Shown: one piece after another, positions 30,436 through 51,279 of the stretch
How the letters are laid out: each line of letters opens with the position of its first letter
How positions within the stretch are numbered: the first letter of the stretch is position 1
Assembly (NCBI GenBank): GCA_039985375.1
Contig: JBDWSS010000055.1
Span: 15,286-79,285 of the forward strand
Length of the DNA: 64,000 nucleotides
Reading direction: 5' to 3'
From: Flavobacteriaceae bacterium
GTDB lineage: Bacteria; Bacteroidota; Bacteroidia; Flavobacteriales; Flavobacteriaceae
Position numbers and translations under genes: made by a program
The notes under the pieces: model-generated
The model's database searches: none
Told to the model about the DNA's origin: nothing
The model's input: the letters and a program-made list of their open reading frames with translations, nothing else

Positions 30436-30488
30436 TTTTGAATTCTTTTATCTTAATTCAAAACTATTACAGAACCCTATGAAAATAA

Positions 30489-30502
30489 ATGACAATTGTC
30501 AG
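30489..30502 (-). promoter_or_regulatory. Crp/Fnr-type box upstream of hpf
   Basis: Reads CTGACAATTGTCAT in gene orientation. The -7-like TAGTTTTG (30459-30466) starts at the 23rd nt after the box. 53 nt separate the box from the ATG. Confidence 0.7.
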
Positions 30503-30519
30503 GTTTATGGATAGCGTGA

Positions 30520-31833
30520 TTACCCCAGAAAAAGGGGTTGGCCAGTACTTTGAAGCACAGAAAACCAAAAACCACCTTCTAAATCAATTTTCTTTCTTTT
30601 GGAAACCACGGCAGAAATTGGCAGATACACAAACTTATCGTTGACCTTTCCAACCACAAACTTGGTTTTACCGCTCATTGCTCCATGTACGGCGTGATAG
30701 GCGAGACTGCTGCAAAACACGCTATCTCCTGAGTTGGCCGCCGCACTCCTTATAATATAACTGGGATCAATATATTTGATTGTAACAGGAAAGATATCGG
30801 AGAAATATTCCCCTATTTTTTGTTTCAGAAATATTCCAATATCCTTATGTTGAACATTGCCGGAAGCATCCGTTATGGTATCTTCTTTTTCAAAAAGATG
30901 CTGTCCTGCTCCTTCTGCAACCACAATTACTGCATGATGTTTATCTTCCAACCTCGTCTTTAGAACTTCCAGAAAACCATCATTTCCATAAAGTTTAAAA
31001 TCCAGTTCTGGAACAAGTACAAAATTCACCACAGGCATTGCAAGTGATGCCGAAGCTGCAATAAAACCGCTATCCCTTCCCATTAGTTTAACAATGGAAA
31101 TACCATTATAAGCTCCGGTAGCCTCATTGTGTGCATCTTTTAAAATTGGACTGGCAATATCAAAAGCGGTTTCAAAACCAAAAGATTTGTCTATGATATC
31201 AACGTCGTTATCAATAGTCTTTGGAATTCCTACAACACTAATGTCCAAATCTCTCTTCTTGATTTCCTCTCCTATGGCATTGCATCCTTTTAGGGTCCCA
31301 TCCCCTCCTATGGTAAAAAGCATTTGAATATTGTTCGAGACCAAGGTATCAACCATTACGGAAACATCCTGGGCCCCTCTGGAGGAACCCAAAATGGTAC
31401 CGCCAAATTGGTGAATGTCCTTTACTTTATCTGGAGTAAGTTCTATGAATCCATGACCCATTTCAGGATTCAACCCTTCATATCCATAAGGAATTCCCAG
31501 TATCCTTTTGGCCCCATAAAAATAATGTAACGCCATTACTATTCCACGAATTACATTGTTGATGCCAGGACAAAGCCCCCCGCAAGTAACAATTGCCGCA
31601 GTAAAGTTTTGAGGCTCAAAATGAATATTTTGCCTCGGCCCTGCTTTTTCCAAACACAAAGGTGTCTCATTATTAACAATACACTTGTTGTATTCCTCCA
31701 AAGTGGTATCAAAAACCAATTTATCGGTTTCACCTATAAAAGTGAAAATGTTATCTCCCCTCACAGTGCTTAGCTGCAGGGGAGATTTGAAGTTGGGATG
31801 TCCTAAGTTTTCTATTTGAAATCTGTCTTTCAC
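30520..31833 (-). CDS. pfkA: ATP-dependent 6-phosphofructokinase (long form)
   Basis: 437-aa ORF with CGGLCPGINNVIRG and IGGDGT (the GGDG form suggests ATP rather than PPi) and PKTIDND. Confidence 0.9.
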   Translation of the reverse strand: MKDRFQIENLGHPNFKSPLQLSTVRGDNIFTFIGETDKLVFDTTLEEYNKCIVNNETPLCLEKAGPRQNIHFEPQNFTAAIVTCGGLCPGINNVIRGIVMALHYFYGAKRILGIPYGYEGLNPEMGHGFIELTPDKVKDIHQFGGTILGSSRGAQDVSVMVDTLVSNNIQMLFTIGGDGTLKGCNAIGEEIKKRDLDISVVGIPKTIDNDVDIIDKSFGFETAFDIASPILKDAHNEATGAYNGISIVKLMGRDSGFIAASASLAMPVVNFVLVPELDFKLYGNDGFLEVLKTRLEDKHHAVIVVAEGAGQHLFEKEDTITDASGNVQHKDIGIFLKQKIGEYFSDIFPVTIKYIDPSYIIRSAAANSGDSVFCSSLAYHAVHGAMSGKTKFVVGKVNDKFVYLPISAVVSKRKKIDLEGGFWFSVLQSTGQPLFLG

Positions 31834-31839
31834 CTTATA

Positions 31840-33468
31840 TTAAAAGTGTTCGTTCAAGCTATGATGGGAATCTATCAATGGACCTCCATTCAATATTTCC
31901 TCTGAAGCCTCGCTTGCAAATTTATCAAAGTTTATGTGGAACGAATGTGCCAGTTGGATGGCTTTGCTAATATAAGCTCCTTTTTGCAGCCAAGTGTTCA
32001 TGGGATCCAATATCTCCGTGGGCACTCCAGGGCAATACTTTGGCATGTAAAGTCCAAAAACGGGATGTGCATCAAATTCCACATCATCCAATTTACCTTC
32101 CAAAGCGGCAGCAATCATTGCTCTGGTATACTTTAACTTTATCCTTGAACCCACTCCATATGGGCCACCGCTCCAACCCGTATTAACCAACCAAACATTT
32201 ACTCCGGCCTCGGTCATCTTCTTGCTCAACATTTCTGCATAAACTGTTGGGTGCAATGGCATAAAGGGTTCTCCAAAACAAGCTGAAAAAGAGGGTACAG
32301 GTTCATTTATTCCGGCTTCAGTGCCCGCAACCTTGGCGGTATATCCAGAGATAAAATGATATGCAGCCTGCCCTGGGGTTAATTTAGACATTGGAGGTAA
32401 AACACCAAAGGCATCGCAGGTTAAGAAAAAGATATTTTTAGGGTTTGACGCATGGGAAGGTACCTGAATATTATCTATGTGATCAATAGGATAACTCACC
32501 CTGGTGTTTTGGGTAATGGAACTATCAAAGTAATCTACCTCTTTTGTTCCTTCTTTAAAAACTATATTTTCCAATAAAGCTCCAGGACGTATGGCTCTAA
32601 AAATATCGGGTTCTTTCTCTTCGGTTAAGTCGATGACCTTGGCATAGCATCCTCCCTCAAAATTAAATATACTGTTCTCAGCCGTCCAACCATGCTCATC
32701 ATCTCCTATCAATTTTCTATTGGGGTCTGCCGATAAGGTCGTTTTTCCGGTACCTGACAAGCCAAAGAAAATAGCGGTATCTCCTGCTTCTCCCACATTT
32801 GCCGAACAGTGCATTGGAAGTACATTTTTCTCTACGGGTAAAATCAGATTCAATGCAGAAAAAATACCTTTTTTCATCTCACCGGTATAAGCAGAACCAC
32901 CTACCAAAGCGATTTTTTTTGTAAAATTTAGAATGGAAAAGTTACCACTGATGATTCCAAAATCTTTTGGCACGGGAGCTTCATACCCAGGAGCGCATAA
33001 TACCAGCCATTCTTCTTCAAAATTCTCCAGTTCCTCTTCGTTTAACCTGAGAAACATATTTTTAATAAAATAATTGGACCATGGATATTCAGTAATAGTC
33101 CTTACGTTCATTTTATACTTGGGGTCAGCACATACCGATGCATCACGGACAAATACTTCTTTACCACTTAAATATTCCACCATTTCGGCATAAAGCTTGT
33201 CAAAATTCAAAGGGGATAATGGTTTGTTCACCCTTCCCCACCACACTTTGTCCTTGGTATAATCATCCTTTACCAAAAACCGATCTTTAGGCGAACGTCC
33301 TGTAAATTTGCCCGTATTTATGGACAATGTTCCATTTTCAGTTTCTGTGCCCATCCCATTATCAACGGTAATACGTTGTAGGGTCTCTGCATCTAAATTC
33401 CAATGTGCCAAAATGTTCTTTAAGCCATATCTGCTTAAATCTCTAGTTTTTTCCGTGACTTCATTCAT
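31840..33468 (-). CDS. pckA: phosphoenolpyruvate carboxykinase (ATP)
   Basis: 542-aa ORF with the kinase-1a motif GLSGTGKTTLS and IGDDEHGW. Confidence 0.95.
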   Translation of the reverse strand: MNEVTEKTRDLSRYGLKNILAHWNLDAETLQRITVDNGMGTETENGTLSINTGKFTGRSPKDRFLVKDDYTKDKVWWGRVNKPLSPLNFDKLYAEMVEYLSGKEVFVRDASVCADPKYKMNVRTITEYPWSNYFIKNMFLRLNEEELENFEEEWLVLCAPGYEAPVPKDFGIISGNFSILNFTKKIALVGGSAYTGEMKKGIFSALNLILPVEKNVLPMHCSANVGEAGDTAIFFGLSGTGKTTLSADPNRKLIGDDEHGWTAENSIFNFEGGCYAKVIDLTEEKEPDIFRAIRPGALLENIVFKEGTKEVDYFDSSITQNTRVSYPIDHIDNIQVPSHASNPKNIFFLTCDAFGVLPPMSKLTPGQAAYHFISGYTAKVAGTEAGINEPVPSFSACFGEPFMPLHPTVYAEMLSKKMTEAGVNVWLVNTGWSGGPYGVGSRIKLKYTRAMIAAALEGKLDDVEFDAHPVFGLYMPKYCPGVPTEILDPMNTWLQKGAYISKAIQLAHSFHINFDKFASEASEEILNGGPLIDSHHSLNEHF

Positions 33469-33486
33469 AATTTTTGTTTTTTTAAG

Positions 33487-35325
33487 TTAAAAGTTCCATA
33501 TCCACGGAACCAGTATTAATGTTGCAACAAAAAACAGGAGCAATAATGGCCCTCCTACTTTTATATAGTCTATAAATTTGTATCCGCCAGAGGACATTAC
33601 CATAGCATTGGTGGTTGTTCCAACGGGAGTTAAAAAAGCTGTGGAAGCACTGATTGCAACGGCGATCATAAATGGTTTTGGAGACACTCCCAATGTAGTT
33701 GAGGCCATAATGGCGATGGGCGCCATTAAAACTGCCGTCGCAGAATTGTTTATGGTTTGACTGAGTGTGGTGGTCAATATAAATATTCCCCCCAAAAGCG
33801 CGACAGGATGAATACTTCCCAGTGAATCTACCAAACTATTGGCAGCTAATTGTGCTACACCTGTCTTTTGCAGGGCAAGTCCCATAGGAATCATTGCCGC
33901 TATCATTACCACACTTGTCCAACTAATTCCTTTGTATGCTTTTGAAATGGGAACACAACGAGTCAACAGCATAATTCCTGCACAAATTAAAGCGGCTATG
34001 GCCCCTGGAAGTATCTTAAATACCAATAACAATATCATAAGTACAAGTGTTCCAATGGCAACATAACTACGTGCGTTTAGTATAGCTACATTCTTTGACA
34101 TTGATTCTGGACTTCCAGAAATCAATACATTTTCATATAAAGATTTTAAGGTCTCCATATTTGTCCAGGATCCGCGAATTACAAAGGCATCTCCGGCTGC
34201 AATTTTTATTCTGCCCTTAAGGGCCCTATTGTTTCTTGAAGCTGCTAATAATTGCACTCCAGCTTGTTTTAGATAATTTCCCAGATTGATGGTCTTGCCT
34301 ACAAAAACCGAGTTTGGTGTAATCAACATTTCAGCCATCCCCACTTCTTGATTGATCAATTCATTTTTAAGGGTATCTCTTTCTGCCCTGGTTGGAACAA
34401 TGCCTAGATTATACCTTAAAACCAATTTATCTACCGCCTCTGGCTCACCTTCCACGGTAATAATATCATGATACCTCATTTCGGTATCCGGGTCTGGCAA
34501 TTCAACAAATTGAGGTGTTTTTTGTTGTAATGGACTTGGATGCCTTCGTTTTAAACGCATCACTGATATATTGTGTTCCTCTTCAAAGTTCCAGTCTCTG
34601 ATTTCGGTATTGATAAAGGGAGACATGGAGCGTATGCGCAGGCGATATAGATTGTCCCCAATACTATAATTTTCAATCCATTTGTGCATTTCAGCATCAA
34701 TATTGGCAGGTTTTTCATTAGTTTTTCGCTTAGGCAATAAGCGATAGCCAACATACCTAAAATACAGGATTGCAATAATCAACAAAGGCAATCCTATCAA
34801 ACTGAATTCAAAAAACGAGAAGCCTTCAAAGTTATTTTCAACAAGGGCATTGCTAACGATAATATTGGGTGGTGTGCCGGTAAGCGTTAAAAGCCCTCCC
34901 GTATTGGAACCAAAAGCCACTGGCATCAGTAATTTAGATGGTAAGGTCCCTGCACTCCAGGCTGCGGAAACCGTAACAGGCAACAGGGCAGCTACCGTTC
35001 CAGTGTTACTGACAAAACCCGAAAGAACGCTAGCTCCCAAAGTAACAATGACCAGTAGTTTTGGAATACTTTTACCTGCCCAGCTTACAAAGCGTTGCCC
35101 TGCCAATGCTGTCCATCCAGTTCTGGACAGCCCTTCCCCGATTATGAACAATGCGGCAATCATGATAACAGTGGAATTACTGAAACCTGACAATGTTTCC
35201 CTAACATCCAAAATACCCGTTAAATAAAGGGAGAGCATGGACATAAGCGCCACAACATCTGGAGGAAACTTTCCCCATACAAATAAGGCGATCGTAATAC
35301 AGAGTATTATCAAAAGTGTGAACAT
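33487..35325 (-). CDS. SLC13/DASS-family anion permease with central TrkA-C domains
   Basis: 612-aa ORF with two polytopic halves separated by a soluble region of about 200 aa with TrkA-C-like repeats. Confidence 0.85.
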   Translation of the reverse strand: MFTLLIILCITIALFVWGKFPPDVVALMSMLSLYLTGILDVRETLSGFSNSTVIMIAALFIIGEGLSRTGWTALAGQRFVSWAGKSIPKLLVIVTLGASVLSGFVSNTGTVAALLPVTVSAAWSAGTLPSKLLMPVAFGSNTGGLLTLTGTPPNIIVSNALVENNFEGFSFFEFSLIGLPLLIIAILYFRYVGYRLLPKRKTNEKPANIDAEMHKWIENYSIGDNLYRLRIRSMSPFINTEIRDWNFEEEHNISVMRLKRRHPSPLQQKTPQFVELPDPDTEMRYHDIITVEGEPEAVDKLVLRYNLGIVPTRAERDTLKNELINQEVGMAEMLITPNSVFVGKTINLGNYLKQAGVQLLAASRNNRALKGRIKIAAGDAFVIRGSWTNMETLKSLYENVLISGSPESMSKNVAILNARSYVAIGTLVLMILLLVFKILPGAIAALICAGIMLLTRCVPISKAYKGISWTSVVMIAAMIPMGLALQKTGVAQLAANSLVDSLGSIHPVALLGGIFILTTTLSQTINNSATAVLMAPIAIMASTTLGVSPKPFMIAVAISASTAFLTPVGTTTNAMVMSSGGYKFIDYIKVGGPLLLLFFVATLILVPWIWNF

Positions 35326-35347
35326 AGCTTCTCTGTTGGGATTGTCA

Positions 35348-36145
35348 TTAGTCCAAGGTCAATAACGGAACATCTGCATGCAGGGTCAATAGTTTGGTCA
35401 ATCGCCCTTCTGATGGAGTGCTCAATCGGGTATGGTTTCTTGGTAAAATGGCAAGAAGGTCAATGTTTTTCCTGTTGATATAATTTAAAATTCCTTCTTC
35501 AACATCCTGATTTTTATTGAATGTGTGTTCTTCATAAAAGTGTTCCAAGTAATACTCCAATAAATTTTCGGTGCTATCAACAATAGACTCCTCGGCATAA
35601 ACTGATTCTTTATAGATGGTAAGCACATGCACCTTTGAATTAAATGTTCTAGCAATATCGAGAAGGGTCTTTAGCACTTCTTTATCATCAATTTCCTCAT
35701 TGCCCAATACAAGTGCTATTTCTTTGGGCACTTTTATATCGCAACCATAAGGTACCGAGATTACAGGGCAATTGGCATTAAGAACAAGCTTTGAAGTGTT
35801 GGTTATTGCTTCATCGGTTACCTTATCTAACATGGTCCCCATCATTATTAAGTTCGCTTCATATTTCTGCTGAACCGCAAGGATTGTGTCAATAACCTCT
35901 CCAGTGACCACGGTGATTTCCGGTGCTCTTTTTACCTTTTTTGAAAAGGAATCGATTACCTTTTTAAAATTCGATTTTAAGTTTATTTCCTCAGATTCCG
36001 AAACAGGCATTGCGGAAACGTATAATGCCTGAATATCCACAACCCTATTGGGTCCCGCAAAATTGATTACATACTCCAAGGCATTAACAGATGCTTCAGA
36101 AAAATCGAATGGAATTAAAACTTTATTAATATGACTCATACCCAA
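35348..36145 (-). CDS. universal stress protein (tandem-domain)
   Basis: 265-aa ORF with two Usp halves (VLIPFDFSE...; VISVP). It ends 22 nt upstream of the permease start, on the same strand. Confidence 0.85.
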   Translation of the reverse strand: MGMSHINKVLIPFDFSEASVNALEYVINFAGPNRVVDIQALYVSAMPVSESEEINLKSNFKKVIDSFSKKVKRAPEITVVTGEVIDTILAVQQKYEANLIMMGTMLDKVTDEAITNTSKLVLNANCPVISVPYGCDIKVPKEIALVLGNEEIDDKEVLKTLLDIARTFNSKVHVLTIYKESVYAEESIVDSTENLLEYYLEHFYEEHTFNKNQDVEEGILNYINRKNIDLLAILPRNHTRLSTPSEGRLTKLLTLHADVPLLTLD

Positions 36146-36202
36146 AAAATTAAGTGATTAAAATCTTCATTTCAAAAGTATTACCAGCTTATGACCTAAA
36201 AT

Positions 36203-36216
36203 ATGACAGAGATCAG
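36203..36216 (-). promoter_or_regulatory. Crp/Fnr-type box upstream of usp-SLC13-pckA-pfkA
   Basis: Reads CTGATCTCTGTCAT in gene orientation. The -7 TACTTTTG (36173-36180) starts at the 23rd nt after the box. Confidence 0.7.
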
Positions 36217-36437
36217 GTTTTAAAATTTTATAAAAAAAGAAGTGCCAATTTCCTTTAAGATCTGCACATCCCATACATAAAGTTATAGGCACAATTGGCC
36301 TCATTATTCACCCAGTATTCAACGTATTGCTTTGAATGTAAAAGAAGGGTGAACATTTCCCTTTGAAACTGATAAGTATCATTCTTTTTCCAGTTGTAAA
36401 ACACAAAACTTTGTGTCCAATATCAAAGACCATTCGC

Positions 36438-37151
36438 ATGGGATATCCCAAACTATTGCCTTTCTGTTTTTTCCTTATTTTATTCCTTGTTGCCTCAAAC
36501 TTCTTCTCCAATGCCCAATCTTTAAAAGAAAATAAATCAGGCTCGTGGTTGGTTTTATCAGGAAACAACAAGGTGCATGATCGGTGGAGTATTCCAACAG
36601 TTGGTATTCTAAGGCACCATGATATCTTTCAACAATATGAGTTTGCTTTTGTTAGAACAGGAATATCCTATAAAATAAGCCAAGCGTCAACCTTTACTAC
36701 TGGCGTGGCCTATTTGAATTCAAAGACCTATATGGAATCTACAGCAATCAATAGGGCCTCCCAATTTTGGATTTATGAGGAATACGCTTTAAAGACAAAA
36801 CTATTTTCCCATAGATGGAGATTGGAAACGCGGTGGAAAAAAAATATTGAAAACTTACAAGTAAATAACAGGGTGAGGTATCGGATTCAATATAGTCAGT
36901 TACTTTACAAAAAAATATATCTCAAGTCATTTAATGAATTGTTTTTTAATCTTAACGGCCCATTATTTGATCAAAACAGACTTTATATGGGTCTAGGTCA
37001 AATTTTAACCCCTTCCGTTAAAATTGATATTGGGTATTTAAAAAATCACTTTAAAAGTTCTGCGCACGATGTTATTCGAATGGGCTTGACTTTTAAAACT
37101 GATCTCACAAAAAAAGAAATTGCCCAATATAGATCAATCCAAAGTCAATAG
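36438..37151 (+). CDS. putative outer-membrane protein (DUF2490-like)
   Basis: Start set to MGYPKLLPFCFFLILFLVASNFFSNAQS (signal peptide). Trp/Tyr/Arg-rich beta-strand pattern. The family assignment is tentative. Confidence 0.5.
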   Translation: MGYPKLLPFCFFLILFLVASNFFSNAQSLKENKSGSWLVLSGNNKVHDRWSIPTVGILRHHDIFQQYEFAFVRTGISYKISQASTFTTGVAYLNSKTYMESTAINRASQFWIYEEYALKTKLFSHRWRLETRWKKNIENLQVNNRVRYRIQYSQLLYKKIYLKSFNELFFNLNGPLFDQNRLYMGLGQILTPSVKIDIGYLKNHFKSSAHDVIRMGLTFKTDLTKKEIAQYRSIQSQ

Positions 37152-37181
37152 CGTATTGAATAGTGAAACTATCCACATGAC

Positions 37182-37195
37182 CTGATTATTATCAT
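37182..37195 (+). promoter_or_regulatory. Crp/Fnr-type box upstream of tonB
   Basis: CTGATTATTATCAT. The -7-like TAACTTTA (37218-37225) starts at the 23rd nt after the box. 52 nt separate the box from the ATG. Confidence 0.65.
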
Positions 37196-37247
37196 ATTTT
37201 TTGGTGCATGACCTATCTAACTTTATATCAATTAAATAGAAAATGTC

Positions 37248-37973
37248 ATGAAACCAAAAAAGAACCCAAAAGCAGATATAGGACGCAATAGCAGTCTCTA
37301 TTTTATGATAGGTCTTAATCTTGTTCTGTTAGTTGTTTGGCAATCTTTCGAGCTTAAAACCTATGAGAAAGAATTGCAGGCCCAGAACGTAGTCAATATA
37401 GTTGACGAGCTTAAAGAGGATGTTCCCTTAACGGAAAATGTAGTAACAACACCTCCTCCGCCTCCGCCTTCCGCACCGGATGTAATTGAAATTATTGAAG
37501 ATGTTGAGGATGTTGAGGAAACTGTCATTGAAAGCACTGAAAGTAGTCAAGATACTTTTATTGAAGATGCAATTGTAAATGTAGATGATTTGGAAGTTGG
37601 AGAAGTGGAAGAAGACATCACGGTACCTTTTGCTTTTATTGAAAATGTGCCTGTTTTTCCTGGGTGCGAAAATTGTTCAACTGAAAAGGAGCGGAAAATT
37701 TGTTTTAATCAAAAGATGCAAGAACATGTTAAAAATAATTTCCAATATCCCAAACCTGCACTGGACATGAATATTACGGGAAAAGTCTATGTACAATTTG
37801 TAATAGATTCCAATGGAAGAGTGAAAAACATTCAAAAAAGGGGCCCGGATAGGTTATTGGAGCAGGAAGCCGAACGAATTATTGCAGCCTTACCTATGAT
37901 AAAACCTGGCAAACAGCGCGGAAAACCTGTAAAGGTCAAATATGGCATTCCTATCAATTTTGTGATGCAATAA
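37248..37973 (+). CDS. tonB: energy transducer TonB
   Basis: 241-aa ORF with an N-terminal TM, a proline run (TTPPPPPPSAPD), an acidic linker and a C-terminal TonB_C-like domain (GKVYVQFVIDSNGRV...GIPINF). Confidence 0.85.
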   Translation: MKPKKNPKADIGRNSSLYFMIGLNLVLLVVWQSFELKTYEKELQAQNVVNIVDELKEDVPLTENVVTTPPPPPPSAPDVIEIIEDVEDVEETVIESTESSQDTFIEDAIVNVDDLEVGEVEEDITVPFAFIENVPVFPGCENCSTEKERKICFNQKMQEHVKNNFQYPKPALDMNITGKVYVQFVIDSNGRVKNIQKRGPDRLLEQEAERIIAALPMIKPGKQRGKPVKVKYGIPINFVMQ

Positions 37974-38012: not shown

Positions 38013-38026
38013 CTGATAATTATCAT
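38013..38026 (+). promoter_or_regulatory. Crp/Fnr-type box upstream of hemN-usp
   Basis: CTGATAATTATCAT. The -7 TAATTTTG (38049-38056) starts at the 23rd nt after the box. 50 nt separate the box from the ATG. Confidence 0.7.
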
Positions 38027-38053
38027 GTTTTATACAATCATCGGAGGTTAATT

Positions 38054-38067
38054 TTGATCATCATCAA
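38054..38067. promoter_or_regulatory. perfect TTGAT-N4-ATCAA palindrome overlapping the hemN -7 element
   Basis: TTGATCATCATCAA is identical to the classical FNR consensus half-sites. It overlaps the last 3 nt of the -7 box and ends 9 nt before the hemN ATG. Confidence 0.45.
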
Positions 38068-42813: not shown

Positions 42814-44223
42814 TTAATGATAACTTCTTGGTGCCAAAAATTGTGTTGTTGTTGTTTCAATACGTTTATTGCCGCTATAAACTCCAATTTTCAACTTATC
42901 CTTATCCCCTGTCAGAGCGGAACTGTTGATCTCTATAAACAATGTTCCTTCGGCAATTTCCTCTGCAGGAACTTTAAATCTATCCTGAGATACCATTTTA
43001 ATCTCTCCTTTATGAGACAACAATTTAAAGCCAACACTGTCTATATCTTTGGATGTTTTGTTCACTAATTTATAGGTGTATACATTGCTAATGTTGTTAT
43101 TGGCTTTTCTTTCGTATAACTGCCCGGGCAACCTTAAGATGTTTGCTTCCAATTCGTTTCTAAGAAAAAGCATGCCTATTAAAATACCGGTAAGCACAAC
43201 AAGCACCGCAGTATAGCCTTTCATTCTAGCGGTAAATTTGAACTTCGCTTTTTTGTTTATCTCATCTTCGCTTGCATAGCGAATCAAACCTTTTGGTTTT
43301 TGAATGCTCTCCATAATATGATCGCATTCATCAATACATGCTGTGCAGTTAACACATTCCAATTGGGTTCCATTTCGGATATCTATTCCAGTAGGGCAAA
43401 CATTTACACACTGAAAACAGTCTATACAATCTCCATGGCCCAAGGTATCCCTGTTTTCGTTCTTTCGGAATTTTTTACGCCCGTTATCCCCTTCTCCCCG
43501 TTTATGATCATAGGCTACCACAATGGATTTGTCATCCAAAAGCACTCCCTGTAATCTTCCATAAGGGCATGCTATGATGCACACTTGTTCACGAAACCAG
43601 GCAAATACAAAATAGAACACACCAGTAAAAATGAGCAATGGAATCATGGTTCCCATATGGGCCATTGGGCCATCAACAACATACCTGATCAGTTTATCAC
43701 TTCCAATAAGATAAGCCAAGAAAACATTAGCTATTAAAAATGAGATAATAAAAAAGATGGCCCATTTTAATACCCTTTTTCGAATTTTCATGCCATTCCA
43801 AGGGGATTTATCCAGGCGTTTTTGAGCTCCACGATCTCCATCTATCCAATACTCAATTCTTCGAAAAACCATTTCCAGGAAAATGGTCTGTGGACACATC
43901 CATCCACAGAAAATACGCCCATAGGCCACTGTAAAAAGGGCAACAAAAATAACTCCTGCAATCATGGAGACAACAACCAAATGAAAATCTTGGGGCCAAA
44001 AAGGAAAGCCAAAAATATTGAACCTTCTTTCCATTACATTGAACAGTAAAAACTGATTGCCGTTTATCCTGATAAAAGGCGATGCAATCAAGAAAAGCAA
44101 GAGTCCATAACTAACGTATTTGCGGTACTCAAAAAATAGCCCTTTAGGTTTTTTAGGATAAATCCATGCCCTTTTGCCCTCTTCGGATATCGTCCCTATG
44201 GAATCCCTAAAATTCTCTTCCAT
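42814..44223 (-). CDS. ccoG: cytochrome c oxidase accessory protein CcoG (4Fe-4S ferredoxin-type)
   Basis: 469-aa ORF with TM segments plus two ferredoxin motifs, CIDCFQCVNVCP and CVNCTACIDEC. Confidence 0.9.
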   Translation of the reverse strand: MEENFRDSIGTISEEGKRAWIYPKKPKGLFFEYRKYVSYGLLLFLIASPFIRINGNQFLLFNVMERRFNIFGFPFWPQDFHLVVVSMIAGVIFVALFTVAYGRIFCGWMCPQTIFLEMVFRRIEYWIDGDRGAQKRLDKSPWNGMKIRKRVLKWAIFFIISFLIANVFLAYLIGSDKLIRYVVDGPMAHMGTMIPLLIFTGVFYFVFAWFREQVCIIACPYGRLQGVLLDDKSIVVAYDHKRGEGDNGRKKFRKNENRDTLGHGDCIDCFQCVNVCPTGIDIRNGTQLECVNCTACIDECDHIMESIQKPKGLIRYASEDEINKKAKFKFTARMKGYTAVLVVLTGILIGMLFLRNELEANILRLPGQLYERKANNNISNVYTYKLVNKTSKDIDSVGFKLLSHKGEIKMVSQDRFKVPAEEIAEGTLFIEINSSALTGDKDKLKIGVYSGNKRIETTTTQFLAPRSYH

Positions 44224-44297: not shown

Positions 44298-45251
44298 TTA
44301 GTTCATGGCGACATCCGTGGAGTCGGAAACCTGTTCCATGGGAGCTTCTTCCATTGTTTCTTCAGATTCAGGTGCATCTGAATCAATCCAAATTTCACCC
44401 TCCGATGCTTTTGGTTCAGCAGGTGTTGTTCCTCTCAATGTTAATATATAACTGGCCACTTGTGCCATTTCAACAGGTTTTAAACTTTGTTTCCACGCAA
44501 TCATACCTTTACCATCCCGACCTCCTTCAGAAATGGTATTAAATACATTTTTGATACCTCCGCCCAAAATCCAATATTCATCGGTTAGGTTAGGACCAAT
44601 TCCTCCCCCTCCATCAGCCATATGACATGCAATACAATTTGTAGTGAATATTTTTTCTCCTGCACTTAAATCTGCCGCTTCGGATAAAAACTCTACGGTA
44701 TTCACATCTACTAAATCCTTGGCGGTTTTCTTATATTCTTCGATAGCGATTTTAGCTGCGGCCACTTCTTGCTCGTATTCCAATTCTTGGTCATAATCAT
44801 CAGCAACATGAAAACGTATGAGATAGACTACTCCAAAAACGATAGTGGCATAAAAGAGATATACCCACCAAGGCGGCAACACATTGTCCAACTCCCTAAT
44901 ACCATCATAATTATGATCCAGGATTATTTCGCCTTCTTTTTCAATTTCCTTGGTTTTAGTAAGGCGTTTATACATATTCTTGGCCCATGTCCATTGTCTT
45001 TTCTTGGCCTTGGATTCCAGGTAACGTTCTTTGGCTTCTGGCGATAGTGTTTGGAACATGATATTTTCAATGGAACTTAAAATAAGTTCAATGGCAATCA
45101 ATATCAACAGTACCAGTAATAGAAAAAACTGCGTAATGGGATATTCGATAATGGCTGGTTTATCGCCAGAATCTATAAAGTATTCCATCAATCCGAAGAT
45201 GATAAAGAATAGTAGTGGAATTCGTATCCACCAAGGTGTTCTTGTGCTCAT
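44298..45251 (-). CDS. ccoP: cbb3-type cytochrome c oxidase subunit CcoP-like (single haem c motif)
   Basis: 317-aa ORF with N-terminal TMs, the DGIRELDNVLPPWW motif and one CxxCH (CIACH). Confidence 0.85.
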   Translation of the reverse strand: MSTRTPWWIRIPLLFFIIFGLMEYFIDSGDKPAIIEYPITQFFLLLVLLILIAIELILSSIENIMFQTLSPEAKERYLESKAKKRQWTWAKNMYKRLTKTKEIEKEGEIILDHNYDGIRELDNVLPPWWVYLFYATIVFGVVYLIRFHVADDYDQELEYEQEVAAAKIAIEEYKKTAKDLVDVNTVEFLSEAADLSAGEKIFTTNCIACHMADGGGGIGPNLTDEYWILGGGIKNVFNTISEGGRDGKGMIAWKQSLKPVEMAQVASYILTLRGTTPAEPKASEGEIWIDSDAPESEETMEEAPMEQVSDSTDVAMN

Positions 45252-45255
45252 AATA

Positions 45256-45441
45256 CTATAGTTTGTTTTGTTGATCGTTTTCCAAGGGCAGTTCTCCCAT
45301 CTCTTTTATATGTGCTTTTGTAGCTGTAAACACCCACCAAAACAACAGAACAAAAAACACGAAGAATATTAATAAGGATATCATGGGATAACTTGCAATC
45401 CCTTCTATACTTTCCATATGGTTTTTTACAAATTTCAACAT
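45256..45441 (-). CDS. ccoQ: CcoQ/FixQ-like small membrane subunit
   Basis: 61-aa single-TM ORF between ccoNO and ccoP. Confidence 0.6.
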   Translation of the reverse strand: MLKFVKNHMESIEGIASYPMISLLIFFVFFVLLFWWVFTATKAHIKEMGELPLENDQQNKL

Positions 45442-45547
45442 CGCTTTTCTAGATTTAAGATGTTAGAAATAAGGTGTCCGACAAGGGTTATTCTATATTT
45501 CACTCCTACTCCTTGCCTTACTTCTCATCGCTGCCATCTGGTTTCTT

Positions 45548-47728
45548 TTATTCTGTTTCTTTTACCCTAATATCTGTTCCTAATCGCTGTAGGTAGGCGA
45601 TCAATGAAACAATTTCCCGATTACGCATTTCAATAAATTCTTCTCCATTTTCTCTCGCATATTTTTTATCGGCTTCATAAGTTCTTTCGAATTCTGGATC
45701 CGTGTATAGGTTCTTTTCAATTTGAGTTGCTTGTTCTATCATAGACTGCTGAGCATTGGCTATATCCTCATCAGTATAAGGGACACCTAGTTTAACCATA
45801 GCTTCCATTTTATTTTGAACGGCACTTCTGTCATGTTCATTAATCACCAACCACTGATAAGCAGGCATAATGGATCCTGATGATGTACTTTGCGGATCAT
45901 ACATGTGATTTAAGTGCCAGTTGTCCGAGTACTTGCCTCCTATTCTATGTAAATCAGGGCCCGTTCGCTTACTTCCCCATAAAAATGGATGGTCGTAAAC
46001 AAATTCTCCGGCTTTTGAATACTCTCCATACCGTTCCACTTCACTTCTAAAGGGTCTGATCATTTGAGAGTGACAACCTACACAACCTTCTCGGATGTAT
46101 AAATCCCGTCCTTCCAACTCTAAAGGTGTATATGGTTTTACACTGGTAATGGTGGGAATATTGGATTTTACCAAAATTGTTGGCACAATCTGAATAATTC
46201 CTCCTATTAAAATGGCAACCGTGGCCAAAATGGTCAACTGTACCGGTTTTCTTTCCAACCAGCTATGAAAGGTTTCCCCAGCAGTTCTTCTTTTAGAAAC
46301 CCTTGTCAAGGCAGGTGCTTCTGCTTTTTCATCTTCTACAGAGCTTCCTTTTCTAATAGTGATAATTACATTGTAGACCATAATCAACATACCCACAAGG
46401 AACATGGTGCCTCCTATGGCACGCATCCAATACATTGGTATGATTTGGGTTACGGTTTCCAAGAAGTTTCCATAGACCAATGATCCATCTGGATTAAATT
46501 CTTTCCACATAAGGGCTTGGGTAAATCCGGCAACATACATAGGCAGTGCATATAGGATAATCCCCAAGGTGCCTATCCAAAAATGTAAGTTTGCCAATCC
46601 TTTTGAGTGGAGCGTTGTCTTGAACATTTTAGGAACCAACCAATAGATCATACCAAATGTCAAGAATCCATTCCATGCCAATGCTCCCACATGAACGTGG
46701 GCAATAATCCAATCGCTAAAGTGGGCAATGGCATTCACATTCTTTAGTGATAGCATTGGACCTTCAAAAGTGGCCATACCATAACCTGTAATCGCAACAA
46801 CCATAAATTTCAAAGTGGCATCACTTCGCACTTTATCCCAAACTCCTCTAAGGGTCAGTAGTCCATTGATCATACCTCCCCAGGAAGGGGCAATCAGCAT
46901 AATAGAAAAAACAACCCCTAGATTCTGGGCCCAATCCGGTAAAGAGGAATACAATAAATGGTGTGGTCCCGCCCAGATATAGATGAATATCAACGACCAA
47001 AAATGGACGATGGAAAGCCGATAGGAATATATTGGTCTATTGGCTGCTTTGGGCACAAAATAGTACATCAATCCTAAAAATGGGGTAGTCAAAAAGAAGG
47101 CTACGGCATTATGGCCATACCACCATTGCACCAAGGCATCTTGCACACCTGCATACACCGAATAACTTTTTAAAGCAGCCACAGGTAACTCCAAACTATT
47201 AAAAATATGAAGCACTGCAACGGTTACAAAAGTTGCTAGATAGAACCAAATTGCAACGTAAAGATGGCGTTGTCTTCGCTTTAAAATGGTACCGATTAAA
47301 TTCCAACCAAAAACTACCCAGACTACTGCTATGGCCAAATCTATGGGCCATTCCAATTCTGCATATTCTTTTGAGGTGGTATACCCCAAGGGCAATGTTA
47401 TAGCTGCAGCCACAATGATCAACTGCCATCCCCAAAAATTGAAGTTGCTCAAAAAATCACTGAACATTCTTGCTTTTAGCAATCTTTGGGTGGAATAATA
47501 GACCCCCGCAAAAATGGCATTTCCAACAAAGGCAAAAATAACCGCATTGGTATGCAATGGACGCAGGCGTCCAAAACTTAACCAAGAAATGCCATCGGTG
47601 ATATTGGGAAACAAAAACATAAATGCCAGTAGAAGCCCTACCAGCATCCCAACAACACCCCATAGCATAGTGGCGTATAAAAACTTCTGTACGATTTTAT
47701 TGTCGTAGCTAAATTGTTGTATTTCCAT
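45548..47728 (-). CDS. ccoN: cbb3-type cytochrome c oxidase, fused subunits I and II (CcoN-CcoO)
   Basis: Haem-copper oxidase core with many TM His, plus a C-terminal mono-haem CcoO part (CVGCHSQMIRP). Start placed at MEIQQFSYDN (47728), overlapping the ccoS end by 20 nt. Confidence 0.92.
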   Translation of the reverse strand: MEIQQFSYDNKIVQKFLYATMLWGVVGMLVGLLLAFMFLFPNITDGISWLSFGRLRPLHTNAVIFAFVGNAIFAGVYYSTQRLLKARMFSDFLSNFNFWGWQLIIVAAAITLPLGYTTSKEYAELEWPIDLAIAVVWVVFGWNLIGTILKRRQRHLYVAIWFYLATFVTVAVLHIFNSLELPVAALKSYSVYAGVQDALVQWWYGHNAVAFFLTTPFLGLMYYFVPKAANRPIYSYRLSIVHFWSLIFIYIWAGPHHLLYSSLPDWAQNLGVVFSIMLIAPSWGGMINGLLTLRGVWDKVRSDATLKFMVVAITGYGMATFEGPMLSLKNVNAIAHFSDWIIAHVHVGALAWNGFLTFGMIYWLVPKMFKTTLHSKGLANLHFWIGTLGIILYALPMYVAGFTQALMWKEFNPDGSLVYGNFLETVTQIIPMYWMRAIGGTMFLVGMLIMVYNVIITIRKGSSVEDEKAEAPALTRVSKRRTAGETFHSWLERKPVQLTILATVAILIGGIIQIVPTILVKSNIPTITSVKPYTPLELEGRDLYIREGCVGCHSQMIRPFRSEVERYGEYSKAGEFVYDHPFLWGSKRTGPDLHRIGGKYSDNWHLNHMYDPQSTSSGSIMPAYQWLVINEHDRSAVQNKMEAMVKLGVPYTDEDIANAQQSMIEQATQIEKNLYTDPEFERTYEADKKYARENGEEFIEMRNREIVSLIAYLQRLGTDIRVKETE

Positions 47729-47939
47729 AAGTATTGGTTTGATCTTTATTTTGTTTGATTTCCTTATTTTCAGTTCCACCTTTGTTTAAATCCGATAGTA
47801 TTTCATCTTCAAAAAGCATGCGAACAGAAGGCGTATAAGCATCATCGTATTGTCCTCTTTTTACGGAAAGGACAAAGGCTGCAAAAAAGACCAGCGCAAC
47901 TGTAATGCTTATGGCCAACAACACATATATAACACTCAT
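47709..47939 (-). CDS. ccoS: cbb3 oxidase maturation protein CcoS
   Basis: 76-aa ORF with a single TM followed by KRGQYDD, the CcoS/FixS hallmark. Confidence 0.8.
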   Translation of the reverse strand: MSVIYVLLAISITVALVFFAAFVLSVKRGQYDDAYTPSVRMLFEDEILSDLNKGGTENKEIKQNKDQTNTYGNTTI

Positions 47940-47988
47940 ACCTACCTGAATTCTAGTGTAAAACTACATTGACGTTCTTGTGAAAAAA

Positions 47989-48002
47989 ATGACATATATC
48001 AG
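47989..48002 (-). promoter_or_regulatory. Crp/Fnr-type box upstream of ccoS-ccoNO operon
   Basis: Reads CTGATATATGTCAT in gene orientation. The -7-like TAGTTTTA (47959-47966) starts at the 23rd nt after the box. 49 nt separate the box from the ATG. Confidence 0.7.
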
Positions 48003-48010
48003 TTTTTGAT

Positions 48011-50383
48011 TTATTTTAATCTCCTTCCAGAAAAGTTTGTGCACAAGGTTGTAAAAATCACAATGCTGATTGAGCTCAAAGGCATAAGTATTGCGGCAAC
48101 TACTGGTTCTAATTGACCCGTAACCGCGAAATACAATCCAATAACATTATAGCACAATGACAGAAGGAAACTGAGTTTTATGATTTGAACGGACTTCCTT
48201 GACAACTTCAGAAAAGCAGGAAGTTTGGTCAGGTTTGAAGCATCTAAAATGGCATCACACGCCGGTGAAAAGACGTTGATATCTTCGGAAATGGATATCC
48301 CCACATTGCTTTGGGCCAATGCACCAGCATCGTTAAGTCCGTCACCAACCATAAGTACACTATGATCTTTCTGTAGGTATTTTATATACTCCAATTTGTC
48401 TGTTGGTTTTTGATTGAACAGCAAATTGGTCTTAGCCGGCAGTATTTTTTGCAAGTGTTTTCTTTCCCCATCATTGTCCCCGGAAAGAATCCCAATATTC
48501 ATGGTCTTTCCCAAGGCTACAAAAAGGTCTTCCACCCCATCCCTATATTTATTTTTGAAAACAAACCGTCCTTTATAATCTTCATCAGAACTTACATAAA
48601 CTGCGGTAGTTGAAGCCGTTTGTTTCACGGATTCCCCAACATAGCTGGCGGAACCTGCTTTAATGGTATGCTTGTTCAGTTTTCCTTCCACTCCCCTACC
48701 TGTATGCTCCTGAAATTCATCGAGCGTTACAATATCGTTGGACTTTAATATGTCATATAATGATCGACTCAATGGATGGTTTGATGCCCGTAATGTTGTT
48801 TTCAGTAATGATATTTCTGCTTCGGTAAGTGATATTCCTTCGTACAGGATAGCCTCTTTTACCGTGGAAGTGATAGTCCCCGTTTTATCGAAAATAGTCG
48901 TGTCTATTTTAGACAAACGTTCTATTATATTAGTGTTCTTCAAATAGAATTTATGCTTTCCAAATATGCGAAGCATATTGCCCAAGGTAAATGGTGCTGC
49001 AAGGGCAATTGCACAGGGGCATGCAATGATAAGAACTGCTGTAAAAACATTAAGGGCCATACTTGGCCTATAAAACAACCAAAAAACCGTTGCCAAAGTG
49101 GCTATTCCCAAAACAGCTATCGTGAAGCGTTTTCCAATGCTATCCGTCAAGGTTTGAAAAGCAGTGATCTTATCTTTTGAAAACACCGAATTCCCCCATA
49201 ATTGGGTAAGATAACTTTGTGAAACCGAGCGAACAACCTCAATTTCCAAAACTCCCGAAAGCTGTCTTCCTCCTGCAAAAAGTTTTTCTTCAGAAGCCTT
49301 AAAAACTGCATTGGATTCTCCAGTTACAAAACTGTAATCTATTTCGGCATTGCCCTTGATCAAAATACTGTCTACAGGAATAATTTCCATGCTCCGGATC
49401 AGCAACCTGTCGCCTGTCTTTATTTTATAAATTTGAATATTCTCTTCCTTCCCGTTAACATTCAACCGTGTCACAGCTATTGGAAAGTAGGATTTATAAT
49501 CTCTTTCAAAGGAGAGAAATGAATACGTTTTTTGTTGAAAGAATTTCCCAAGTAAAAGAAAAAAAATCAAGCCTGTCAGGCTATCAAAAAAACCGGATCC
49601 TAAATCAAAAATAATATCTATAGTACTCCTTAAAAACAGGGTCAAAATTCCCAGTGCTATGGGAACATCAATGTTGAGTACTTTAGAGCGCAGTCCCTTA
49701 AAGGCTGAAATGAAATAATCCCTAGCCGCATAAAACACTACGGGCAGCGAAAAAGCAAACATTAACCAACGAAAGACCGGCTTATATTGATTCAACCAAA
49801 ATTCCTCAACCTCAAAATACTCCGGAAAAGAGAACAACATTACATTACCAAAAGCAAAACCCGCAACACCAAGTTTATAAATAAGTGAACGGTCTATCTT
49901 GGTGTTTTTCTTCGTATACTCTTCTAAGGAAATATAAGGTTCATACCCTATGGAGCTCAATAAAAGCACAAGAGCCTTCAAAGAGAAATCTTGTAATTTA
50001 TAAGTTACCCGGATGGTTTTCTTAGGAAAGTCTACCTGCGAAGTAGAAATGGATGAATGCATGCGATTCAGGTTTTCCAATACCCAAATGCAGGAGCTAC
50101 AATGAATGTTTGGAATGCTCAAATTGACAACCTGAACTCCTTCCTCATTAAACTCAACAAGCTTTTCAACAATATCCTGGTTATCTAGAAAATCATATTT
50201 GTGTTGAATTTCGTTGGGCGTTGAACCTGCTCTCGCTTCTATATCATAGAAACTGGACAAGCCATTGGAAGTGAAAATCTCGTAGACCGTTTTACAACCA
50301 TTGCAACAAAATTCCTTTTCATCGAAAAGAACTCGTGTGCGATTGCAATCATCACCACAATGATAACATCTCATGTTTGTCAT
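48011..50383 (-). CDS. ccoI: copper-translocating P1B-type ATPase CcoI/FixI
   Basis: 790-aa ORF with N-terminal Cys-rich metal sites (CYHCGDDC, CCNGC), the transmembrane CPC motif, phosphorylation site DKTGT and GDGLNDA. Confidence 0.9.
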   Translation of the reverse strand: MTNMRCYHCGDDCNRTRVLFDEKEFCCNGCKTVYEIFTSNGLSSFYDIEARAGSTPNEIQHKYDFLDNQDIVEKLVEFNEEGVQVVNLSIPNIHCSSCIWVLENLNRMHSSISTSQVDFPKKTIRVTYKLQDFSLKALVLLLSSIGYEPYISLEEYTKKNTKIDRSLIYKLGVAGFAFGNVMLFSFPEYFEVEEFWLNQYKPVFRWLMFAFSLPVVFYAARDYFISAFKGLRSKVLNIDVPIALGILTLFLRSTIDIIFDLGSGFFDSLTGLIFFLLLGKFFQQKTYSFLSFERDYKSYFPIAVTRLNVNGKEENIQIYKIKTGDRLLIRSMEIIPVDSILIKGNAEIDYSFVTGESNAVFKASEEKLFAGGRQLSGVLEIEVVRSVSQSYLTQLWGNSVFSKDKITAFQTLTDSIGKRFTIAVLGIATLATVFWLFYRPSMALNVFTAVLIIACPCAIALAAPFTLGNMLRIFGKHKFYLKNTNIIERLSKIDTTIFDKTGTITSTVKEAILYEGISLTEAEISLLKTTLRASNHPLSRSLYDILKSNDIVTLDEFQEHTGRGVEGKLNKHTIKAGSASYVGESVKQTASTTAVYVSSDEDYKGRFVFKNKYRDGVEDLFVALGKTMNIGILSGDNDGERKHLQKILPAKTNLLFNQKPTDKLEYIKYLQKDHSVLMVGDGLNDAGALAQSNVGISISEDINVFSPACDAILDASNLTKLPAFLKLSRKSVQIIKLSFLLSLCYNVIGLYFAVTGQLEPVVAAILMPLSSISIVIFTTLCTNFSGRRLK

Positions 50384-50434
50384 TTACATTTGCTTTACCC
50401 AAGACAAAATTGTGACACAATTAAATCTAAAAAC

Positions 50435-50448
50435 ATGACATTTATCAG
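50435..50448. promoter_or_regulatory. shared Crp/Fnr-type box of the divergent ccoI and crp/fnr promoters
   Basis: Reads CTGATAAATGTCAT toward ccoI, with -7-like CAATTTTG at 50405-50412. Toward the regulator gene, TAGTTTTG at 50471-50478 sits at the same offset, starting at the 23rd nt. Confidence 0.7.
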
Positions 50449-50502
50449 TTCTTGTTCAATACTTTAGGGTTAGTTTTGTCTTATCAGGTAAATCAATCAG
50501 TT

Positions 50503-51192
50503 ATGGAGAGCAGGTGTGAAAATTGTATCATTAGACAATTCAATTCGCTAAGAGCCATGAGCAAAGACGAATTGAAGAAAGTATCCGACTCTAAAACCAC
50601 AAAAACCATAAAAAAGGGAGAACCCCTTTTTGAAGAGGGAGAAAAGCTTAATGGGGTATTTTGTGTTCGCGATGGGGTTTCTAAACTTTCTAAACTTAGT
50701 GCCAATGGCAAAGATCAAATTGTAAAATTGGCCACCAAAGGGGAGGTACTTGGACAACGATCCGTAATCGCTGAAGAATGTACCAATCTTTCTGCAATAG
50801 CTGTCAATGATATGGAAGTATGTTTCATTCCTAAAGAAAGTATTAATAATACTTTACAAAGCAATCCTAATTTCACCCTTGAGGTATTGCGTCATATGGC
50901 TCATGATCTTAAGGAAGCTGATGACGTTATTGTAAACATGTCTCAAAAAACCGTAAAACAGCGTATTGCTGAAGCTTTCCTGTATTTAAAAAACAATTTT
51001 GGCGAAGATAGCGAGGGGTTTTTGGCTCTTACCCTTTCAAGAGAAGACATATCCAATGTTGTTGGTACGGCTACCGAATCTGCCATTCGAGTTATTTCAG
51101 AATTTAAGAAACAAGGACTTATTCATACCTCAGGGAAAAAAATTGGAATAAAAAATGAACATAAATTGGTTGAATTGGTAGAAGGCTTCTAA
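50503..51192 (+). CDS. Crp/Fnr-family transcriptional regulator
   Basis: cNMP-binding-type beta-roll plus a C-terminal HTH (REDISNVVGTATESAIRVISEF). Start moved to MESRCENC (50503), because the box and -7 element lie inside the longer ORF. Confidence 0.88.
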   Translation: MESRCENCIIRQFNSLRAMSKDELKKVSDSKTTKTIKKGEPLFEEGEKLNGVFCVRDGVSKLSKLSANGKDQIVKLATKGEVLGQRSVIAEECTNLSAIAVNDMEVCFIPKESINNTLQSNPNFTLEVLRHMAHDLKEADDVIVNMSQKTVKQRIAEAFLYLKNNFGEDSEGFLALTLSREDISNVVGTATESAIRVISEFKKQGLIHTSGKKIGIKNEHKLVELVEGF

Positions 51193-51213
51193 AATACCCT
51201 ACGGTTCAAAAAC

Positions 51214-51227
51214 CTGATAATTGTCAT
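51214..51227 (+). promoter_or_regulatory. Crp/Fnr-type box upstream of the third usp
   Basis: CTGATAATTGTCAT. The -7-like TAATTTTA (51250-51257) starts at the 23rd nt after the box. 52 nt separate the box from the ATG. Confidence 0.7.
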
Positions 51228-51279
51228 AGTATCCCTTTTTACTTCGCGCTAATTTTACTTCATCCTTATAATTAGCGAT

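Follow-up and report, generated by a model that had tools for sequence, protein, structure and literature searches.

A stretch of 64,000 nucleotides (nt) from a Flavobacteriaceae bacterium (GenBank assembly GCA_039985375.1, contig JBDWSS010000055.1, positions 15,286 to 79,285 of the forward strand; hereafter the window) carries a repeated promoter box, CTGAYNNNNRTCAT (CTGAY-N4-RTCAT, a 14-mer), upstream of genes for the cbb3 oxidase and its maturation, for oxygen-independent haem synthesis, and for several Usp proteins. We regard this box as the operator of the homodimeric FNR-like regulator encoded at 50503-51192, which would activate these genes at low oxygen from a class II position, and put the probability of this reading at about 0.8. 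Our verdict is that the locus represents a Bacteroidota variant of the FNR low-oxygen regulon; binding of the box by this protein, its role as an activator, oxygen as the signal and an iron-sulfur cluster as the sensor are all inferences.

The window holds eight exact matches to CTGAYNNNNRTCAT against 0.48 expected, and none of 100 dinucleotide-preserving shuffles reached eight. Seven of them make up the original prediction, a reading by eye that proposed a candidate Crp/Fnr regulon; an exact pattern search finds the coordinates and strands of all seven 14-mers correct and adds an eighth copy, CTGATAAGTATCAT at 36369-36382(+), that had been overlooked. The coding map that we used is a crude map of open reading frames (ORFs), which assigns ~92.5% of the window to coding and roughly 7.5% to non-coding DNA. 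All eight exact matches are intergenic and fall between 30489 and 51227, while the 12 one-mismatch matches are all coding and none is followed by a suitably spaced −7 element. The sites thus form a clearly delimited class, not the tail of a composition effect. The earlier statement that no copy lies within coding DNA thus stands for the window. Two near-matches outside 30-51 kb, TTGATAATGATCAT (1149) and TTGATTATTGTCAT (2348), lie within long ORFs without a −7 element and were treated as chance occurrences. The boxes and the octamers downstream of them are as follows.

30489-30502 (−): hpf promoter box CTGACAATTGTCAT, exact match, intergenic; octamer TAGTTTTG at 30459-30466, 22 nt downstream
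36203-36216 (−): box CTGATCTCTGTCAT of the usp - DASS/SLC13 - pckA - ATP-PFK operon (36145 down to 30520); octamer TACTTTTG at 36173-36180
36369-36382 (+): DUF2490 promoter box CTGATAAGTATCAT; octamer AAACTTTG at 36406-36413, offset 23
37182-37195 (+): tonB-family promoter box CTGATTATTATCAT; octamer TAACTTTA at 37218-37225
38013-38026 (+): hemN-usp promoter box CTGATAATTATCAT; octamer TAATTTTG at 38049-38056
47989-48002 (−): box CTGATATATGTCAT of ccoS-ccoNO-ccoQ-ccoP-ccoG-fixH-DsbD_2(-CoA transferase) (47939 down to ~40364); octamer TAGTTTTA at 47959-47966
50435-50448 (−): ccoI box CTGATAAATGTCAT, common to the divergent promoter of the fnr-like gene; ccoI octamer CAATTTTG at 50405-50412, regulator octamer TAGTTTTG at 50471-50478 on the plus strand
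51214-51227 (+): usp promoter box CTGATAATTGTCAT, just 3' of the regulator gene; octamer TAATTTTA at 51250-51257

Promoter geometry and conservation of the box

An octamer that matches five or six of the six specified positions of TAnnTTTG starts 22 nt past the end of the box at seven of the eight sites; at the DUF2490 site it starts 23 nt past it. The start at the "23rd nucleotide" given earlier for the seven listed sites is the same position counted differently, and is borne out at all of them. Such octamers occur at 1.6% of intergenic positions in the window, a background rate from which seven of eight at one fixed offset would arise with P ~2e-12. The distance from box end to start codon, earlier put at 49-57 nt, is 49-55 nt at seven sites, including 55 nt to ATG 36438 at the DUF2490 site, which shares its divergent intergenic region with the box of the usp operon. 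Only that operon departs from the stated range, with 63 nt if ATG 36139 is its start; 57 nt is obtained only with TTG 36145.

Start-site mapping in F. psychrophilum places the sigma-A element TAnnTTTG at −12 to −5 (PMC9723704). Because of this position and the 22-nt offset, the box here would extend from −48 to −35 of the predicted start sites with its centre at −41.5, the canonical class II position, which agrees with the class II activator geometry proposed from the spacing. The starts so predicted lie at about 30454, 36168, 36418, 37230, 38061, 47954, 50400, 50483 and 51262. Reckoned from these predicted starts, the distance is fixed, the operator overlaps the upstream element and its centre lies near −41.5, as in class II promoters; with five to six of six positions, the octamers also conform to the Bacteroidota sigma-A promoter (−7 TAnnTTTG, optional −33 TTG or TTTG). 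The −33 region matches TTG poorly (TnTT), and the target −7 octamers are kept in an imperfect form across loci, those of usp and ccoS ending in A, not G. The first base of the ccoI-side octamer (50405-50412 in the window, and its orthologues in the regulator-centred loci L001-L080 described below) is never T in 59 loci, which have CA, GA or AAnnTTTG instead. A conserved imperfect −7 element together with a poor −33 match would fit promoters that depend on an activator.

We extended the analysis to two sets of related loci. The first comprises 80 genome loci (1.5 Mb) centred on homologues of the regulator, from Flagellimonas, Croceitalea, Croceivirga, Maribacter, Zobellia, Ulvibacterium, Muriicola, Eudoraea, Saonia and Cellulophaga, with the closest sampled genome at ~86% nucleotide identity to the window. 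The second comprises 80 metagenome loci centred on HemN homologues (65-80% identity), with 79 usable hemN promoters. Against ~15 expected, the exact pattern is found 218 times in the regulator-centred loci, in 205 cases upstream of homologues of usp (74), ccoI (68) and ccoS (63), and in most of these loci the regulator gene has a box on either side. The octamer starts 22 nt past the box in 199 of 200 unique promoter sequences, so that the fixed spacing seen in the window holds across genera. The box, the five bases directly after it and the octamer carry much information per position, and the 16-nt spacer carries almost none, a profile that reads as a textbook phylogenetic footprint. Of the 79 hemN promoters, 78 have the TGA-N6-TCA core and, 22 nt on, a −7 element, and boxes also precede homologues of tonB (11 metagenome loci), usp1-like genes (12), hpf (5) and ccoS (12, from the hemN-centred set where synteny allows). 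Beyond these genera, Roseivirga, Vicingus and one Cyclobacteriaceae genome have regulator homologues (found with representative P0145) that are 35-39% identical to the protein of the window, again adjoin ccoI-ccoS-hemN-ccoNO or usp, and come with TGA-N6-TCA 22 nt from TAnnTTTG; sites and neighbourhood together indicate that the system spans at least Flavobacteriales and Cytophagales.

The FNR-like regulator and its proposed signal

The one Crp/Fnr gene of the window lies directly between two of the boxes.

50503-51192 (+): FNR-like Crp/Fnr-family regulator, 229 amino acids (aa); Pfam cNMP_binding and HTH_Crp_2

Its Pfam scores are all above the cut-offs (PF00027 66 bits, PF13545 55 bits, PF00325 27.8 bits), and the combination of a beta-roll of the cNMP-binding type with a Crp helix-turn-helix, matched by 74 family members in the PDB, places it in the Crp/Fnr superfamily, as had been expected; among solved and curated proteins its nearest relatives are FNR. 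It is 85-96% identical to Flagellimonas proteins, the window being from a Flagellimonas/Muricauda species, and aligns over its full length with A. fischeri FNR (E ~1e-22). In FNR, the cluster ligands are Cys20, Cys23, Cys29 and Cys122, and the recognition helix has the motif ExxSR (PMC3590769). The protein here has four cysteines, C5 and C8 in an N-terminal C-x2-C, C54 and C107, all invariant in our alignment A1; C5, C8 and C107 fall on Cys20, Cys23 and Cys122, and C54 lies opposite the Ala of FNR "LYAIRSG". Its recognition helix, GTATESAIRVI, keeps the E and R of the FNR-type motif, and the best NCBIfam model is Fnr (NF008365).

Several points weigh against an operator-regulator pair of the FNR kind. 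The ligand Cys29 is absent, its column being an invariant Asn14; the helix reads ExxIR (T-E-S-A-I-R), with Ile in place of the Ser of ExxSR; and the Fnr model scores 109.6 bits against a cut-off of 228. A symmetric dimer by itself, furthermore, gives no explanation for the C at position 1 and the T at position 14 of the box, and our search for a second Crp/Fnr paralogue covered only the window and the hemN loci. On account of the first three of these points we term the protein FNR-like, not FNR; the models FnrL (75.4 bits) and FixK (55 bits) are likewise far below their cut-offs of 300. The Crp/Fnr assignment of the neighbouring regulator has thus been sustained, and its departure from an orthodox FNR had not been foreseen.

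These departures are regular. We compared the protein with a distant set of 128 full-length representatives of 50%-identity clusters, 30-64% identical to it: all four cysteines are kept in 87 of the 128, the column of Cys29 is almost never Cys, and E-[ST]-x-I-R is the rule across the regulator clade. The alignments therefore point to a coherent clade with a cysteine signature of its own. In the jelly-roll the strand of C54 is presumably a neighbour of the strand of C107, and this fold topology makes C54 a plausible candidate for the fourth cluster ligand. The Ser of ExxSR, according to the work of Spiro and Guest on FNR and CRP, reportedly reads the base just outside TGA, and this is exactly where the box departs from TTGAT.

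The missing Cys29 leaves room for a signal other than oxygen acting through a [4Fe-4S] cluster, such as a thiol-disulfide or metal switch, or the sensing of nitric oxide, redox state or haem. Elsewhere in the family the switch is a two-Cys disulfide or haem (bound by PgRsp and HcpR), and CrpPg (2gau), which scores best among solved relatives, is without a ligand (PMC12040651); box-preceded MBL-rhodanese and CBS-domain genes in some loci would fit sulfide or redox control too. However, the alignment is exact at three of the four ligand positions of FNR, and the fourth Cys is co-conserved in the 87 representatives just mentioned. The regulon, moreover, consists of the cbb3 oxidase, CcoGHIS, HemN, Usp and hpf genes, the Pfam gene calls finding no nir, nor or hcp gene among its members in the window, and in F. 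psychrophilum cbb3 and hemN are jointly induced under hypoxia (PMC9723704). We consider a different signal unlikely, at odds of about one in seven.

Still less probable, in our estimate, is that the box is a Crp/Fnr-type operator bound by another family member encoded elsewhere, with the adjacent regulator just one of the targets. Several Crp/Fnr paralogues are common in Bacteroidota, P. gingivalis having three (PMC12040651), and the GTGAC-N4-GTCAC box found at the same 22-nt geometry in some loci hints at more than one specificity. Yet the boxes on both sides of the regulator gene in most regulator-centred loci tie the sites to this gene; the neighbourhood of regulator, cco genes and usp persists together with the sites across orders, at 35-39% protein identity; and neither the window nor the hemN loci contained a second paralogue.

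Control by repression, with the genes off when the box is bound, we hold to be quite improbable. Crp/Fnr proteins can repress and the box overlaps the −33 region, but the rigid placement at −41.5 is a signature of class II activation, and conserved imperfect −7 octamers next to a poor −33 TTG are typical of promoters that require an activator. That the palindrome and T-run act in RNA, as a hairpin or terminator, or belong to a promoter of an alternative sigma factor as its upstream element, is hardly credible: several boxes are followed by TTTT and those of hpf and ccoS lie just past the stop codon of the upstream gene, but three boxes (four promoters with the regulator's own) are in divergent regions with no upstream transcript to terminate, and the downstream element is the sigma-A −7 consensus. 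The possible stems are of 4 bp, with −0.9 to −3.6 kcal/mol, no better than shuffles (z = +0.27 to −0.92), and Rfam has no match at the box sites. The candidate Crp/Fnr regulon is thus supported by the site statistics, by the spacing across loci, by the family of the regulator and by the identities of the genes.

Symmetry and sharing of the proposed operator

A site definition free of flanks (core plus −7 element at 22 nt) gives 518 unique sites, which together form a 24-bp pseudo-palindrome, AAAA-n-N-TGAY-AWWT-RTCA-N-n-TTTT, as expected for binding by a dimer. All positions match their mirror partner except 1 and 14. The frequency of A on the upstream flank is 0.83, 0.80, 0.70 and 0.54 at −2, −3, −4 and −5, with −1 uninformative; the AAACC or ACC reported to precede most copies is thus roughly right as an A-rich stretch and wrong as to position −1. 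The asymmetry of the box, which the original prediction had left in need of explanation, is real, but it is narrower than described and confined to positions 1 and 14. The flanks of 334 TGAY-N4-RTCA cores in all loci are C..T in 226, A..T in 28, T..A in 21 and C..G in none; unidirectional promoters have C..T in 77% and A..T in 16%, with T at position 14 in ~96% of sites and in 78 of 78 hemN promoters. Cores without a −7 element have random flanks. The distant orders have C, T or A at position 1 and T, once A, at position 14.

We favour, with about even odds, an explanation in which the surroundings of the two subunits differ: the proximal end would abut the −33 region, and the distal end would be free to take the base that the protein prefers. 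Among 172 box-free TAnnTTTG promoters, a small and non-independent sample, TTG peaks at a 20-nt spacer, equivalent to box positions 14-16, which is suggestive of T14 as the first base of a −33 TTG. Against this identity of T14, ordinary promoters have T at that position in only 42%, and the GTGAC-N4-GTCAC box, of equal geometry, has C there. If the proximal T set the direction, A..T should be enriched at bidirectional sites; no such enrichment is seen (18% versus 16% at unidirectional sites).

One operator appears to serve two promoters. Read on the plus strand, the ccoI box gives ATGACATTTATCAG, followed after 22 nt by a perfect TAGTTTTG (50471-50478), 24 nt ahead of the ATG of the regulator gene, and of 68 unique sequences, 55 have a perfect or near-perfect TAnnTTTG on the regulator side at precisely 22 nt. 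The assignment of this box to ccoI was correct, and a divergent regulator promoter at equal spacing had been missed; the claim that the box always points the same way consequently holds at the eight target promoters and fails at the regulator's own, which reads the ccoI box reversed. One dimer at −41.5 of both divergent promoters would imply positive autoregulation of the regulator. The octamers on the two sides of this operator are unequal, the regulator side usually having a perfect TAnnTTTG and the ccoI side never beginning with T, a contrast that looks like a conserved difference in promoter strength across a single operator.

A more far-reaching proposal, which we advance as doubtful, is that the Bacteroidota possess a widespread FNR-like sensor clade of their own, in which C54, a cysteine of the beta-roll, replaces the N-terminal Cys29 in the cluster and the operator encodes direction (T at −35 proximal, C at −48 distal), so that a symmetric dimer would activate mainly one way. 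If true, it would show class II activation adapted to the unusual −33/−7 RNA polymerase of the phylum.

The predicted regulon and its relation to known systems

The gene identities given in the original prediction are upheld by Pfam and NCBIfam, as listed here.

30136-30435 (−): hpf, ribosome hibernation factor; Pfam and NCBIfam
30520-31833 (−): ATP-PFK, operon with the next three; Pfam and NCBIfam
31840-33468 (−): pckA
33487-35325 (−): DASS transporter
35348-36145 (−): usp, first gene of this operon
36438-37151 (+): DUF2490 gene; Pfam
37248-37973 (+): tonB-like gene; TonB_C domain, Pfam
38077-39435 (+): hemN, oxygen-independent coproporphyrinogen oxidase; passes the NCBIfam equivalog cut-off
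39453-40274 (+): usp behind hemN; Pfam/NCBIfam
40364-41632 (−): CoA transferase; Pfam and NCBIfam, as for the eight genes below
41643-42356 (−): DsbD_2
42356-42802 (−): fixH
42814-44223 (−): ccoG
44298-45251 (−): ccoP
45256-45441 (−): ccoQ
45548-47779 (−): ccoNO
47709-47939 (−): ccoS
48011-50383 (−): ccoI copper ATPase; Pfam and NCBIfam
51280-52182 (+): tandem Usp gene, 300 aa; Pfam

At low oxygen the regulator would become active, most likely through an oxygen-labile iron-sulfur cluster on C5, C8, C107 and probably C54. The active form would then bind the pseudo-palindrome AAAA-n-(C/A)TGAY-AWWT-RTCAT-n-TTTT and, positioned at −41.5 of sigma-A promoters (−7 TAnnTTTG), activate in the class II manner, offsetting their weak −33 and imperfect −7 elements. 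The predicted targets are the high-affinity cbb3 oxidase and its maturation genes; the oxygen-independent HemN; the operon of phosphoenolpyruvate carboxykinase, phosphofructokinase and the dicarboxylate transporter; the ribosome hibernation factor; several Usp proteins, the TonB-like protein and the DUF2490 protein; and, via the shared divergent ccoI box, the gene of the regulator itself. The content expected of a low-oxygen regulon (high-affinity oxidase, its maturation, oxygen-independent haem synthesis) is present. Hypoxic induction is documented only for a relative, F. psychrophilum, in which a shortage of oxygen strongly raises expression of the cbb3 operon; hemN and a monohaem cytochrome c are co-expressed with this operon (PMC9723704). 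The operon that joins glycolysis, phosphoenolpyruvate carboxykinase and dicarboxylate transport, together with hpf, would suit a shift to fermentative or fumarate-linked metabolism and slow growth.

The likeness to FNR of Escherichia coli and Aliivibrio fischeri (PDB 5cvr, 5e44) extends over fold, domain order and the full-length alignment, the positions of Cys20, Cys23 and Cys122, the E and R of the helix, the TGA-N6-TCA core with its A/T-rich outer flanks, and the position at −41.5. The regulator here differs by the Asn at Cys29, the new conserved C54, and ExxIR for ExxSR. The core TGAY-N4-RTCA is identical to that of the FNR box TTGAT-N4-ATCAA, whereas the outer base, T/A in FNR, is C or A distally and T proximally (A in the half-site sense). 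The partner polymerase here uses −33/−7, not −35/−10, and the fnr gene is apparently positively autoregulated from a shared divergent site. The FnrL, FixK and Anr regulons of Proteobacteria have the same core set (ccoNOQP, ccoGHIS, hemN, usp) behind an FNR-type box as found here, FixK proteins being without the Cys cluster; they belong to a different phylum, and their box differs in flank and asymmetry. As in class II CRP/FNR promoters, operator and promoter element are a fixed distance apart, the upstream element is overlapped and the core elements are weak; here, however, the distance is measured to the Bacteroidota −7 TAnnTTTG, and one pair of operator positions is direction-specific. The best-scoring solved relative, CrpPg of Porphyromonas gingivalis (PG0396, PDB 2gau; E 6e-26), is of the same phylum, but its alignment begins at residue 34, so that CrpPg is without the N-terminal Cys-x2-Cys segment. 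It is reported to act independently of a ligand and to be linked to virulence traits rather than to respiration (PMC12040651).

The general idea is not new, since FNR-type regulons are textbook knowledge. In the literature that we searched we found no flavobacterial FNR box and no regulator for the induction of cbb3 and hemN; the F. psychrophilum paper and its supplements mention neither Fnr, Crp nor a motif (PMC9723704). Within that literature, several features have apparently not been described before: the flavobacterial box and its rigid class II distance from the −7 element peculiar to the phylum, autoregulation from a shared divergent site, the signature of cysteines and helix that marks the clade, and the conserved one-position asymmetry. 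Much marine organic matter is broken down by Flavobacteriaceae, which inhabit particles and sediments with fluctuating oxygen; to our knowledge, their switch to low-oxygen metabolism is essentially undescribed. The locus would supply a concrete regulator-operator pair with a core regulon that is kept from Flagellimonas to the Cytophagales, and in which the −41.5 class II geometry is retained with the unusual sigma-A promoters of the phylum. The distinct cysteine arrangement could tune oxygen sensitivity, and the box is directly usable for predicting low-oxygen regulons in genomes and metagenomes.

The hemN loci add new candidate genes that are preceded by a box: a 614-aa CBS-domain protein, a monohaem cytochrome c, an acyl-CoA dehydrogenase and an MBL-rhodanese protein. 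The first, seen in L082 (6995-8839, −), L099 (7009-8853, −) and ~10 further hemN loci, has a C-terminal CBS pair and an uncharacterised N-terminal region. Its gene is divergent from hemN, with a correctly spaced box of its own, and is absent from this window; the protein is a candidate for a conserved member of the regulon. The MBL-fold/rhodanese gene (persulfide-dioxygenase-like) is preceded in L106, L108, L110, L115, L121, L125, L130 and L137 by GTGAC-N4-GTCAC, symmetric and CRP-like, then TGTACA; this box lies 22 nt upstream of TAATTTTA and ~55 nt ahead of an ORF of 469-471 aa (e.g. 4142-5557, −, in L106). The orthologous gene elsewhere (L008:1091, L019:1120, L088:7124) has CTGACCAAAGTCAT, 22 nt and CAGTTTTG instead. 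GTGAC-N4-GTCAC may be either a relaxed flank for the same regulator or the site of a paralogue with the same class II geometry.

Some further features of the window concern the genes around the boxes. ccoN and ccoO are fused into a single ORF of 726-743 aa with COX1 and FixO domains (45548-47939, −). Since the longest reading frame of ccoNO shares ~70 nt with the ccoS ORF, translation of ccoNO probably starts at the internal ATG at 47728. At the end of the cco cluster, the gene at 40364-41632 (−) belongs to the acetyl-CoA hydrolase/transferase family, with butyryl-CoA:acetate CoA-transferase as its best NCBIfam model, below the cut-off. It follows DsbD_2 by 10 nt without a box of its own, and may be co-transcribed with the oxidase genes. 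Just downstream of hpf, a putative lipoprotein of 208 aa (29473-30099, −) with no Pfam match might be co-transcribed with hpf from the box promoter. Directly beyond the box-preceded usp at 51280, on the opposite strand, is a hybrid sensor kinase of ~1000 aa with a receiver domain (52294-55308, −); its C-terminal region is AraC-like by eye, and no box was found near the gene. The sole Rfam match in the window is a tRNA at 11943-12030 (−), with 56 bits.

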